From Candidatus Levyibacteriota bacterium (GTDB lineage: Bacteria; Patescibacteriota; Microgenomatia; Levybacterales; UBA12049): 64,000 nucleotides of DNA. Location: contig PLZJ01000002.1 in assembly GCA_003152105.1 (NCBI GenBank), positions 405,682 through 469,681 of the forward strand, written 5' to 3'. Made by a program: the position numbers and the translations under genes. Of the stretch, positions 36,217-52,738 are shown in pieces. Each line of letters opens with the position of its first letter. Position 1 is the first letter of the stretch. The notes beneath the pieces are model-generated. The model was not told where the DNA came from, ran no database searches, and saw nothing but the letters and a program-made list of their open reading frames with translations.

Positions 36217-36287
36217 TGTCGGGTCGTCTAACGGTAGGACAACGGACTCTGAATCCGTTTATTATGGTCCGAATCCATACCCGACAG
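36217..36287 (+). tRNA. tRNA-Gln (anticodon CTG)
   Basis: Manual cloverleaf: acceptor TGTCGGG/CCCGACA (U1:A72), U8, D-stem GTCT/GGAC with GG in loop, anticodon stem ACGGA/TCCGT, loop CTCTGAA (U33, CUG, A37), T-stem TATGG/CCATA with loop TCCGAAT, discriminator G73, CCA not encoded. Confidence 0.6.
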
Positions 36288-36304
36288 CATATAGACCTAT
36301 AATA

Positions 36305-49376: not shown

Positions 49377-50570
49377 TTGAAATTACTGGAAAATCACTTA
49401 CGTTTGATCTATACTCATTATGTTTTCCACTTACATATGAATAAGAATCAATTATTTGTTTTAAATAAAGGATATCATTATGGGGTAAGGCCACTATTAT
49501 TTCGATTTCCTTCTGAAGCAGTGCATGAAGCATTAACCTCATTTGGTCAATTTTCTGGCAATAATAAGATTATCACTGAGATTCTTAGTAAATTTTTTAT
49601 AAATCAAGACAATTCTATAAAGCAATCTTTTTTTGGGATTCCATTTGTGAGTCCTATCGGTCTTTCTGCTGGATTTGATTATAGAGCAGAGCTAACCCAA
49701 GTTACGCCTGTTTTAGGTTTTGGATTTGAAACGATAGGAACGATTACGAATTATCCATATAAAGGTAATTCGAGTCCAAGGCTTGGAAGATTGGTGCGCT
49801 CAAAGTCACTGCTAGTAAATAAAGGATTTAAAAATGAGGGAATTAAGAAAGTTATTTCGAAATTATCGGGAAAACATTTTTCAATTCCAATTGGACTGAG
49901 TATAGGAAGAACAAATTCAACAGCACTTTCTACACAAAAAAAATCAGTCGAAGATATATGTTCTGCATTTACAATTGCGGAATCATCAGGTATCCCCTTT
50001 TCGTATTACGAATTAAATATTAGTTGTCCAAATCTTTATGGAAATATTTCTTTTTATAGTAAGCAAAATTTAACTGAATTACTTCGTGCTGTTACAAAGT
50101 TACCATTAGCAAAACCACTTTTTATAAAAATGCCAATTGATAAAACAAACGTTGAAATAAAGAAAATATTACATGTTATTGTAGGCTTTGCGGTATCTGG
50201 AGTAATATTCGGAAATTTACAAAAAGACAGAAAAGACCCTGCACTAGTGCAAAGTGAAGTAGATAAATACCCTATCGGAAATTTTAGTGGCAAACCAACT
50301 CAGAAAAGATCCGATGAATTAATTGCATATGCATATAAACATTTTGGAGATAAATTATTGATTATTGGGTGCGGAGGCGTTTTTAGCGCTGAAGATGCAT
50401 ATCAAAAAATTCGTCGAGGGGCATCTCTTATACAACTTATTACTGGTCTCATATTTGTCGGACCCCAGCTAATATGTGAGATAAATTGTGGACTTTCTGA
50501 ACTGTTAAAGAGAGATGGGTTTTCGCATATATCTGAGGCAATCGGTATTGATGTAAAATCAGCTAGTTGA
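49377..50570 (+). CDS. pyrD: dihydroorotate dehydrogenase (quinone), class 2
   Basis: alignment-grade similarity to E. coli PyrD blocks: PRLGRLV, NKGFKNEG, LNISCPNL, IIGCGGV, GASLIQLITGLIFVGPQLICEI; start may be Met at about 49431. Confidence 0.75.
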   Translation: MKLLENHLRLIYTHYVFHLHMNKNQLFVLNKGYHYGVRPLLFRFPSEAVHEALTSFGQFSGNNKIITEILSKFFINQDNSIKQSFFGIPFVSPIGLSAGFDYRAELTQVTPVLGFGFETIGTITNYPYKGNSSPRLGRLVRSKSLLVNKGFKNEGIKKVISKLSGKHFSIPIGLSIGRTNSTALSTQKKSVEDICSAFTIAESSGIPFSYYELNISCPNLYGNISFYSKQNLTELLRAVTKLPLAKPLFIKMPIDKTNVEIKKILHVIVGFAVSGVIFGNLQKDRKDPALVQSEVDKYPIGNFSGKPTQKRSDELIAYAYKHFGDKLLIIGCGGVFSAEDAYQKIRRGASLIQLITGLIFVGPQLICEINCGLSELLKRDGFSHISEAIGIDVKSAS

Positions 50571-50599
50571 AAATTATAGTAAATATAGTTATACTATAA

Positions 50600-50727
50600 A
50601 TACATCAAGAGCGGTAGCTAACACTACCCGGCAACCGATTGAAACGGTGCCTATATCCCTTAATAAGGATAGATGTGGTCATACAGCATATGACAAACAT
50701 TACCTCTTGATAGCAAGAGGTTTTTTT
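50600..50727 (+). promoter_or_regulatory. SAM-I-clan riboswitch (aptamer + intrinsic terminator) in metK leader
   Basis: conserved UCAAGAG...GGCAACC...GGUGCC core (50604-50650); P1 ACAUC/GAUGU; terminator CCTCTTG-ATAG-CAAGAGG + T7 (50703-50727) whose 5' arm can alternatively pair with AUCAAGAG (antiterminator). Confidence 0.6.
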
Positions 50728-51840
50728 ATGGGCAATTATCAATTTACTTCGGAATCAGTTTGCGCAGGACATCCAGATAAGATTTGTGATCAAATTAGTG
50801 ATGCAATTGTTGATGAAGTAATAAGAAACGATAAAAATGGCAGAGTAGCAGTTGAAACAATGGTTACAAAAAATAGAGTGATAATAGTTGGCGAAATATC
50901 AACTAGCGCAAAAATACACATAAAACGCATTGCTCGAGAACAAATAAAAAGATTGGGCTATAACGATAACTCGCTACATTTTACAAACAAATCGCCAATC
51001 GAGGTATACATTCAAAAACAATCAAACGAAATAGCGATTGGTGTTGATAATGATGGAGCTGGAGATCAAGGACTTATGTTTGGTTACGCTTGTTTAGATA
51101 CCGATATTTTCATGCCAATTTCTATAACCATAGCGCATAAGCTTGCTTATGAGATTGATAAAGCACGAGAAACAAAAGCACTTCCATATCTTCGTCCAGA
51201 TGGGAAAACACAAGTAACAGTTTCTTATAAAAATGGCGTTCCAGATAAAGTTGTGTCGGTTATCGTAGCCGTCCCGCATAGTGAAGATGCAAAACTTGAT
51301 CAAGTAAAAGACGACATTTATAAAAAAATTATTTTACCAACACTTTTGAAATATAATTTCACCATTGATCAAAATCATGTGGTAATTAATGGTACTGGTG
51401 CTTGGCATATTGGAGGACCTTCTTCTGACTCAGGACTTACAGGAAGAAAAATAGTTGTGGATACATATGGAGGTTATGCGAGAGTTGGAGGAGGATGCTT
51501 TTCAGGTAAAGATCCTACAAAAGTAGATAGGTCTGGAGCATACGCGGCACGGTATATTGCAAAAAATATCGTTGCCGCCAAGTTAGCAGAGAAAGTTGAA
51601 GTAAGTCTTGCCTATTTTATCGGCGCCAAAAAACCAGTTATGAGTGAAATAGAAACATTTGGTTCAGAAAAAAAATCAAAAAAAATAATTTCAGATTTTG
51701 CAAATGGTTTGCTTGACACTTCGGTTAAAGGTATTTTGCAAGGCTTGTCACTTAGGAGACCTTTATATCTAAAAACCGCAGCTTATGGTCATTTTGGGAG
51801 AGAAGAGTTTCCATGGGAGAAAATTAGTAAGCGGATATAA
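50728..51840 (+). CDS. metK: S-adenosylmethionine synthetase
   Basis: GHPDKICDQISDAIVDEV N-terminal MetK motif and later GGGAFSGKDPTKVDRSGAY; ATG at 50728 chosen because the longer ORF (50647) would run through the riboswitch terminator. Confidence 0.85.
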   Translation: MGNYQFTSESVCAGHPDKICDQISDAIVDEVIRNDKNGRVAVETMVTKNRVIIVGEISTSAKIHIKRIAREQIKRLGYNDNSLHFTNKSPIEVYIQKQSNEIAIGVDNDGAGDQGLMFGYACLDTDIFMPISITIAHKLAYEIDKARETKALPYLRPDGKTQVTVSYKNGVPDKVVSVIVAVPHSEDAKLDQVKDDIYKKIILPTLLKYNFTIDQNHVVINGTGAWHIGGPSSDSGLTGRKIVVDTYGGYARVGGGCFSGKDPTKVDRSGAYAARYIAKNIVAAKLAEKVEVSLAYFIGAKKPVMSEIETFGSEKKSKKIISDFANGLLDTSVKGILQGLSLRRPLYLKTAAYGHFGREEFPWEKISKRI

Positions 51841-51868: not shown

Positions 51869-52414
51869 CTAAAGAGTAGCAATTTTTAGCACAGTATTCC
51901 AGTTTCTTGTAGTGATATTTTTACCAAGTGCGTTTTCCAATACTTTCATTGCGTCAGTAGTATTGTTGTTATTGGATAGTTCTAGTTTCCAACATATACT
52001 GTTTTTGAAAAATGAAACACATTCAATAAAGGATGTAGTTGGAATCTTTGTTTTATGCGCAGAATCTGTCGCATTCTCTGAAAGAAACGTTACATAAAAG
52101 CGAGTTGTTGCGATTAACTCGTATGAAGAAAAAGGTTTAGTTGCAATTAGTTTTTGCATATCAGATTGTTGACAAATAAAAGTATTAATTTTGCTATGAA
52201 ACGTTTCCAAAATACTTGCTTCAATTAGTTCTTTAAGAATATGTAGTTGTGTTTTTTTAGTGGTAAAACAAACATTGCCGCTGTTTAATATAGTTTTAAC
52301 GCTTGTAAAGCCTAAACGAGAAAACATGTCTTGGAGTTTATCCATCGGGATGCTATTTTTGCCGCCAACATTTATGCCACGAAGTAAAGATACATATCGT
52401 ATTTGATCTGTCAT
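51869..52414 (-). CDS. DUF1697 family protein
   Basis: N-terminus YVSLLRGINVGGKNSIPMDKL typical of DUF1697. Confidence 0.6.
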   Translation of the reverse strand: MTDQIRYVSLLRGINVGGKNSIPMDKLQDMFSRLGFTSVKTILNSGNVCFTTKKTQLHILKELIEASILETFHSKINTFICQQSDMQKLIATKPFSSYELIATTRFYVTFLSENATDSAHKTKIPTTSFIECVSFFKNSICWKLELSNNNNTTDAMKVLENALGKNITTRNWNTVLKIATL

Positions 52415-52426
52415 TGTGTTGTAGTT

Positions 52427-52738
52427 TTAATTTGTTTTCCAAAGTGAAGTTGTTAAATTTACGTTATTTTTTGTGAAATCAACTCCTTCTTCCTTGAGGA
52501 GTAGTTTTTTAGCTTGAATGCCATTTCCAAATGTATATCCAGTAAGCTTTCCATTTGATCCAACTACCCGGTGACAAGGAACAATTGTTTTGTCTGGATT
52601 ATGTTTCATTAGCATACCTACTGCTCTTGCTGCTTTTGGTTTTCCAGCAAGAGTTGCCAACTGTTTATATGTTGCAACTTTACCTTTGGGAATTTTACTT
52701 GCAATGTGATAAACGTTTGTCGCAAATGTGGATTGCAT
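52427..52738 (-). CDS. methylated-DNA--protein-cysteine methyltransferase, stand-alone DNA-binding/catalytic domain (103 aa)
   Basis: PCHRVVGSNG active-site motif with Cys retained; helix-turn-helix region upstream. Confidence 0.7.
   Translation of the reverse strand: MQSTFATNVYHIASKIPKGKVATYKQLATLAGKPKAARAVGMLMKHNPDKTIVPCHRVVGSNGKLTGYTFGNGIQAKKLLLKEEGVDFTKNNVNLTTSLWKTN

Follow-up and report, generated by a model that had tools for sequence, protein, structure and literature searches.

A probable SAM-I-clan riboswitch, best placed with SAM-I/IV, directly in front of metK in a CPR bacterium

The stretch of DNA analysed here (64,000 nucleotides, in the following called the window) contains metK, the gene of S-adenosylmethionine synthetase, and directly before it a region for which two uses compete: it can be read as part of a longer open reading frame, or as the leader of the metK transcript. 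A sequence-only reading had taken it for a riboswitch of the SAM-I family with its own terminator. The question is therefore whether this region is coding or regulatory and, if regulatory, to which family the RNA belongs and how it could act on metK. Judging from covariance-model scores, folding predictions and comparison with related leaders, we think it likely that the region is a SAM-responsive OFF riboswitch of the SAM-I clan, with SAM-I/IV as the best fit, which would exert feedback control on metK in a CPR (Microgenomates-like) bacterium, and we propose for it a terminator/antiterminator mechanism.

Identity and anatomy of the leader

Using Rfam 15 on the whole 64 kb, we found a match to RF01725 (SAM-I/IV riboswitch) on the forward strand before metK, with 50.6 bits against a gathering cut-off of 41.1 and an E-value of 2.6e-05 (whole window, both strands, 4227 families). 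The alignment spans the full model, from position 1 to position 99, and all upper-case consensus positions agree. Two matches in the 64 kb exceeded their curated cut-offs, namely one tRNA and RF01725, which is the sole riboswitch; a permissive scan of the whole window detected no additional element of the SAM clan. The other SAM-clan models scored below RF01725, and in the local scan overlapping lower-scoring matches to families of the same clan were dropped in its favour by the clan filter. The scan with RF00162, RF00634 and RF01725 that the sequence-only reading had proposed as a check is thus answered by RF01725, and its guess of a SAM-I/IV-like variant, made from the short P2 that seemed to have no kink-turn, agrees with this family. 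The folding that it had also proposed gave a four-way junction, a 3' hairpin and a terminator. The minimum free energy (MFE) of 50595-50735 is -41.2 kcal/mol (z = -4.23), and none of 200 dinucleotide shuffles folds as well. The tRNA is a tRNA-Gln (anticodon CUG) at 36217-36288 (+), the only one in the 64 kb.

The helices P1 to P5 of the aptamer (50602-50694) are arranged around the conserved SAM-binding core (Table 1). The core nucleotides that had been picked out by eye are all present (UCAAGAG at 50605-50611, GGCAACC at 50630-50636 and GGUGCC at 50646-50651), and the candidate P1 pairs as supposed. Internal hairpins were also correctly recognised, but not their number: two had been counted, whereas P1 encloses three (P2, P3 and P4) and P5 stands after P1. 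The SAM-I-type core consists of AUCAAGAG at P1 and J1/2, of GCAACC...GGUGC with an unpaired A in P3, and of A-GAUG at the 3' side of P1; in 22 relatives the corresponding columns vary little or not at all. P2 is a hairpin of 19 nt without an internal loop, and therefore without a kink-turn. When L2 was compared with J3/4 for a PK-1 pseudoknot, the best match was 3 nt, which is the chance level. The hairpins P2 (p = 0.01), P4 (p < 0.004, 0 of 300 shuffles) and P5 (p = 0.04) are each more stable than shuffled sequences. P4 is an insertion in the current Rfam model of RF01725. The corresponding 18-20 nt at 50652-50671 were considered as a possible new hybrid of a four-way junction and SAM-I/IV, and this was rejected, since P4 is found both in the original SS_cons of Weinberg and in the crystallised RNA. 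Downstream of P5, the segment ACAUU pairs with the 3' strand of P1 and lengthens P5 in every MFE structure without P1.

Table 1. Features of the metK leader and of metK, in positions of the window
Feature	Position	Strand	Basis or remark
Promoter-like site, TTGAAA-17 nt-TATACT	50567-50595	+	Consensus scan, 10 of 12 matches; prediction only
Extent of the RF01725 match	50597-50710	+	Covariance-model score
P1, 5' strand (ACAUC)	50602-50606	+	Pairs with 50672-50676; compensatory changes in 4 of 5 P1 pairs among relatives
Proposed antiterminator strand AUCAAGAG (50604-50606, J1/2 and G50611)	50604-50611	+	Complementarity; MFEs of nascent transcripts
J1/2 (AAGA), conserved SAM-clan core	50607-50610	+	Rfam alignment
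P2: G50611-C50629, bulged C50612, GGUAG/CUACC, 6-nt loop	50611-50629	+	No internal loop
P3: GGCAACCG ... CGGUGCC, conserved A bulge, loop AUUGAAA	50630-50651	+	Rfam alignment, comparative alignments
P4: UAUCC/GGAUA, 8-nt loop; junction hairpin between P3 and 3' strand of P1	50654-50671	+	Folding, crystallised RNA
P1, 3' strand (GAUGU)	50672-50676	+	Alternative partner ACAUU, 50697-50701
P5: GUCAUA/UAUGAC, 5-nt loop, then conserved CAAA	50678-50694	+	Rfam, folding
ACAUU, decoy for 3' strand of P1	50697-50701	+	MFE structures; PK-2 3' strand of relatives occupies the same place
Terminator and SD-sequestering hairpin (predicted), ACCUCUUG-AUAG-CAAGAGGU	50702-50721	+	Terminator scan; -10.3 kcal/mol
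CUCUUGAU, part of 5' arm and two loop bases	50704-50711	+	Complement of AUCAAGAG, 50604-50611
Shine-Dalgarno-like AAGAGG, within 3' arm of hairpin	50715-50720	+	Sequence reading; 7 nt before ATG
U7 tract, first U able to close the stem	50721-50727	+	Abuts start codon
metK (S-adenosylmethionine synthetase), 370 aa, start ATG 50728	50728-51840	+	Pfam, public gene call, homologues

From the promoter-like site, transcription is predicted to start near 50602, within a few bases of P1, and in many relatives promoter-like sites lie 5-12 nt upstream of P1. The gene upstream of the leader (49377-50570, +) encodes dihydroorotate dehydrogenase (PF01180). Its stop codon overlaps the -35 element of the promoter-like site; the PF01180 match starts at residue 81 of the mechanical open reading frame, and the TTG start at 49377 may be too far upstream. 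Downstream, at 51869-52738 (-), two genes are convergent to metK, one for a DUF1697 protein and one for a protein with the DNA-binding domain of 6-O-methylguanine-DNA methyltransferase.

The pseudoknot PK-2, which joins the P3 loop with the 3' tail, is described in PMC6890682, PMC5393176 and the 2010 supplement (PMC2864571), and is absent from the Rfam covariance model of RF01725. In the window it is not recognisable: the best Watson-Crick run between the P3 loop and the tail is 3 nt, which 480 of 500 shuffles reach, and the only longer candidate is 5 bp (AUUGA:UUGAU), includes two G-U pairs and clashes with the terminator. Among the relatives, matches of 5-7 bp that few shuffles reach were found in L003, L082 and L098; counting G-U pairs, L001 has one of 9 bp, candidates were seen by eye in L086 (5 bp) and L092 (7 bp), and six relatives (L085, L087, L091, L094, L096 and L097) have no clear PK-2. 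In L086 the PK-2 strand AAUCU can pair either with AGAUU of the P3 loop or with AGAU of J4/1-P1. A kissing interaction of the P3 and P4 loops (AUUGA:UUAAU), noticed by eye in the window, is supported by no relative and was discarded. We conclude that the leader is a real RNA element and that its membership of the SAM-I clan is secure; membership of the SAM-I/IV family is only probable, because PK-2, which is characteristic of that family, is not recognisable here.

Leaders before related metK genes

The relatives of the 370-aa MetK are at most 65-68% identical to it, and among GTDB genomes and JGI metagenomes we found none closer than 68%. The named ones belong to Candidatus Daviesbacteria, Woesebacteria and Shapirobacteria, that is, to the CPR/Microgenomates. 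Some relatives (L001, L002, L004, L005 and L007-L010) come from TPA metagenome-assembled genomes, several of which are titled 'uncultured Gammaproteobacteria' or 'Pseudomonadales'; their MetK and leader group with Daviesbacteria, Woesebacteria and Shapirobacteria, and these titles look like mislabels.

A SAM-clan core precedes metK in 24 relatives; L005, which also has one, was left unparsed and stands outside this count. From an alignment of 12 leaders made with MAFFT, RNAalifold recovered P1, P3 and the two lowest base pairs of P2; compensatory changes were seen at the base of P2 and in four of the five pairs of P1. In a helix-registered alignment of 22 CPR metK leaders, double-sided changes occur in 22 of 27 pairs, and the share of paired cells is 95.7%; it falls to 70.8% in shuffles and to 33-50% if the 3' partners are shifted by 1-3 columns. 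P1, P2 and P3 were set by position, whereas P4 and P5 were set for each sequence by RNAfold, so that their 100% pairing is partly by construction.

The hairpin at the end of the leader has counterparts. In five relatives (L002, L082, L085, L087 and L092) the U tract of a hairpin formed by anti-Shine-Dalgarno (anti-SD) and Shine-Dalgarno (SD) arms abuts the AUG; in L086 the hairpin is also present, but its U-run is interrupted and the spacer is longer. The MetK proteins of these six are only 61-67% identical to that of the window. As read from the sequences, the layout of hairpin and putative SD is conserved among relatives. Other arrangements also occur: L088, L089 and L093 have a hairpin and U-run 25-58 nt upstream of the AUG together with a separate SD, and relatives such as L003, L011, L091, L096, L097 and L098 are without a terminator, their SD lying in P5 or just after it.

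The aptamers themselves differ in layout. Five of the orthologous metK leaders of this CPR group are SAM-I-like, with RF00162 as the best model, an internal loop in P2, a CUAG:CUAG PK-1 and P4, and these also carry a hairpin directly after P1. In L004 and L081 the layout is SAM-IV-like: PK-1 has 6 bp, P4 is missing, and a hairpin follows P1. The remaining leaders are SAM-I/IV-like; the comparison set L004, L006, L010, L081, L089, L090 and L093 against the window, L001-L003, L011 and L082-L098. Such mixed layouts of one clan in one gene context could be natural intermediates between the families, and this mixture may be the most interesting lead of the analysis. In L007, L008 and L084 no comparable leader was found before metK. 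L083, with a MetK 66% identical, has a leader of about 100 nt (500-600) with the GC-rich hairpin CGCCAGGGGCCCCUAUAGGGGUGUGGCG, in which neither a SAM-clan core nor an Rfam match at E<=1 was detected. Upstream of metK in L009 (1240-1500), a masked run of N and a tandem repeat (CAGGGTTTTAACCTTCAGTTTAGCTCAGGG...) interrupt the apparent 5' part of a SAM-clan aptamer, and the readable portion is the 3' part only (CACGGTGC...).

The hairpin before the start codon and its possible partners

The stem-loop that closes the leader has 8 pairs, four of them G-C, and a loop of 4 nt, and is followed by U7. Previously it had been described as a perfect 7-bp hairpin with U7 that ends 1 nt before the start codon. 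The hairpin and the U-run are as described, and the stem has 8 bp once A50702-U50721 is counted; there is no gap, as the ATG lies at 50728 and the U-run touches it. Since the SD sequence forms the 3' arm and the U tract serves as spacer to the AUG, one predicted stem-loop can act both as a terminator of transcription and as a mask of the ribosome-binding site.

The 5' arm had also been said to match the aptamer over 8 bp and thus to give a 'classic antiterminator/terminator switch'. In fact, CUCUUGAU and AUCAAGAG are perfect complements over 8 bp, but two of the eight pairs use nucleotides of the terminator loop and not of the arm. Likewise, the layout is that of a terminator and an antiterminator, but it is not the classic one, because the partner is the 5' strand of P1 together with J1/2.

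In folding predictions, transcripts that end at or before 50701 have as their MFE structure the aptamer with P1 (-27.7 kcal/mol). For nascent transcripts that end at 50709-50717, the MFE structure contains AUCAAGAG:CUCUUGAU and GAUGU:ACAUU (50672-76 with 50697-701) at -33.4 to -37.1 kcal/mol, to be compared with -27.7 kcal/mol for the aptamer with a free arm. The antiterminator pairing is thus predicted to take the place of P1 while the 3' arm of the hairpin is still to be made. In the full-length leader the antiterminator state has -37.1 kcal/mol and the terminator states have -38.5 (with P1) and -38.6 (with the ACAUU helix), a gap of about 1.5 kcal/mol. With P1 constrained or not, the hairpin prevails at equilibrium, and the probability that the SD is unpaired is below 0.03; according to these models, therefore, the decision of the switch must be kinetic.

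Our proposal for the mechanism is as follows. With SAM bound, P1 would be locked and AUCAAGAG kept in the core, so that CCUCUUG could pair with CAAGAGG to form the 8-bp hairpin, followed by U7. This should end transcription just before the ATG, and any read-through RNA would have its SD buried. Without SAM, decoys would capture both strands of P1 once the 5' arm of the hairpin has been transcribed: AUCAAGAG would pair with CUCUUGAU as the antiterminator, and GAUGU with ACAUU. The hairpin could then not nucleate until the polymerase had passed the U tract, and the SD would stay free. SAM would need to have P1 locked by the time the arm is made; if not, the antiterminator would come first, and the hairpin would need to push it off, starting at its loop end. 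In this scheme the release of the transcript, the binding of SAM and the time scale are inferred.

An alternative explanation of the 8-bp match, which seems unlikely to us, is that it is incidental: an anti-SD arm meets the SD-like J1/2, and antitermination is achieved otherwise, or the leader is a plain attenuator modulated only by the stability of P1, the aptamer and the terminator being real. Indeed, 5-6 nt of complementarity between the arm and J1/2 are automatic, because the SD-like AGAGG resembles the universally conserved AAGAG of J1/2. However, the extension beyond AGAG uses loop bases (GAU in the window, UGAU/UGAUG in L086 and L002) that the pairing with the SD does not constrain, and among 1000 shuffled aptamers only 6 gave a Watson-Crick run of 8 nt with the arm. 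The aptamers of 14 of 23 other loci match the window's arm just as well, but for the window, L002 and L086 this cross-locus control is uninformative, because AUCAAGAG is conserved in most aptamers.

When the window and the six relatives with a similar hairpin are taken together, arm and loop have a Watson-Crick match of at least 7 nt to their own aptamer in six of the seven leaders, and the partner is not uniform. The arm pairs with the 5' strand of P1 and J1/2 in the window (8 nt), L002 (9 nt) and L086 (7 nt), and with J1/2 and the start of P2 in L082 (CGAGAGGC:GCCUCUCG). The partner in L085 (8 nt) and L087 (10 nt) is instead the 3' side of P4, which is in line with an incidental match, and the run of L092, only 5 nt, was reached by 538 of 1000 shuffles. 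On the other hand, the matches of L082, L085 and L087 are locus-specific (0 of 23 other aptamers reach them), and L082 shows a matching double change, in which CAAGAG has become CGAGAG and CUCUUG has become CUCUCG (A to G in J1/2, U to C in the arm). The terminators of L089 and L093, which are not linked to the SD, also pair with AAGAG of J1/2. Finally, the only further alternative helix, GAUGU:ACAUU, lies clear of the terminator and could not block it. We therefore prefer the pairing of AUCAAGAG with CUCUUGAU as the candidate antiterminator.

A riboswitch that acts on translation only is, in our estimate, quite improbable. The hairpin would then merely sequester the SD, the U-run would be an AU-rich spacer in a genome of 34% GC, and no termination would occur. 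The position of the SD in the 3' arm with a spacer of 7 nt to the AUG is compatible with this, as are the relatives without a terminator, whose SD lies in or just after P5, and the GC content of the window (0.33-0.36). However, the stem with U7 satisfies the criteria for a terminator, and the hairpins of L088, L089 and L093 lie too far upstream of the AUG to mask the SD. Furthermore, the SD is buried at equilibrium with or without P1, and thus a thermodynamic switch of translation would have little dynamic range. Termination in combination with masking of the SD remains our preferred reading.

That the leader is a decayed relic, in which the aptamer no longer binds SAM for want of PK-2 and the hairpin is a constitutive attenuator, appears very improbable. 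The failure to find a PK-2 candidate in the window speaks for it, but all conserved core positions are in place, as are the five helices, several relatives without a clear PK-2 keep the same conserved core, and an unregulated terminator of 8 bp and U7 that buries the SD of metK would be costly.

The remaining explanation, that the region is coding, either for an N-terminal extension of MetK or in a 45-aa open reading frame on the minus strand (50605-50742), can practically be dismissed: both frames exist mechanically, but the Pfam domain S-AdoMet_synt_N begins only at residue 31 of the long frame (397 aa, from GTG 50647), on the source contig the gene is publicly annotated as the 370-aa protein from ATG 50728, homologues align by tblastn from residues 1-6 of this short form, and the relatives preserve the RNA pairing here and not any reading frame. 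The frame from 50647 is a mechanical artefact, as the sequence-only reading had held. A start of metK at 50729 was also tried and rejected, because the translation is out of frame.

The leader among known SAM riboswitches

In a classic S-box leader, according to the model of Grundy and Henkin, the 3' strand of P1 forms the antiterminator. Compared with the S-box or SAM-I leaders of metK in Firmicutes (RF00162; L012 and L013 are examples among the leaders retrieved), the window has the same ligand-binding core, four-way junction with P4 and regulated gene, and its predicted logic is likewise OFF control by terminator and antiterminator. It differs in having neither the kink-turn in P2 nor PK-1 (L2 with J3/4), in the extra P5, in a proposed antiterminator partner that is the 5' strand of P1 with J1/2 instead of the 3' strand of P1, and in a terminator that is fused to the SD and abuts the AUG. 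Riboswitch platforms in which one hairpin is both intrinsic terminator and SD sequester are already known. The window's predicted platform shares with them the single stem-loop with a U tract, the 3' arm that is the SD, and the joint shut-off of transcription and translation; it differs in that the AUG stands directly after the U tract, which is about as compact as possible.

The crystal structure of a SAM-I/IV riboswitch, 4L81, was reportedly determined by Trausch et al. in 2014. The crystallised RNA of 96 nt, whose sequence is given in PMC5393176, folds into a dot-bracket topology identical to that of 50602-50698 of the window. Weinberg et al. (2010; PMC2864571 and its supplement) have the junction hairpin, the hairpin after P1 and the pseudoknot of the P3 loop with the tail in the structure lines of the original SAM-I/IV alignment, and describe P2 as plain, without internal loop or kink-turn, and PK-1 as absent; Zhang et al. 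(2019; PMC6890682) also describe SAM-I/IV as having P4 and lacking PK-1. The window agrees with the family in its SAM-I-type core, plain P2, lack of PK-1, junction hairpin P4, and P5 after P1 followed by CAA. It departs from it in the lack of a recognisable PK-2, in its expression platform, a terminator-type hairpin that also holds the SD, and in its host, which belongs to the CPR/Microgenomates, whereas the description of 2010 lists 'several phyla, marine'. SAM-IV (RF00634), as described in PMC6890682, shares the core and the hairpin 3' of P1, but possesses PK-1, has its P2 interrupted by an internal loop and is without P4, the reverse of the window in all three respects.

A bolder reading, possible but doubtful at present, would be that the leader is a SAM-I/IV-type aptamer without PK-2, whose ligand-contacting 5' strand AUCAAGAG (5' strand of P1 and J1/2) is itself the antiterminator and anti-sequestor, by mimicking the SD arm CAAGAGG. 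One hairpin of 20 nt that abuts the AUG would then serve for transcriptional and translational control, and the leader would be part of a set of Microgenomates metK leaders that spans SAM-I-, SAM-IV- and SAM-I/IV-like layouts and could hold natural intermediates between interconverting families. Such intermediates would show that the three families of the clan interconvert by gain and loss of peripheral elements.

In our search of the literature text, we found no paper on natural riboswitches in Patescibacteria and no report of the SAM-I/IV class there, which is weak evidence of absence. A review of 2024 regards riboswitches as promising candidates for inducible gene expression in Patescibacteria and cites synthetic ones (PMC11665869); the leader described here would be a very compact, natural, ligand-controlled expression platform from this group. 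The leader is real but ordinary feedback control, as the aptamer class and the logic of the platform are both of known kinds, and nothing in it overturns the current understanding. The annotation of the locus is corrected: metK starts at 50728, and the preceding 126 nt are regulatory RNA and not coding sequence. For the organism, the prediction is that a reduced CPR genome keeps feedback control by SAM over its SAM synthetase, and for the clan, the set of related leaders could help to clarify the relationships among the SAM-I, SAM-IV and SAM-I/IV architectures.
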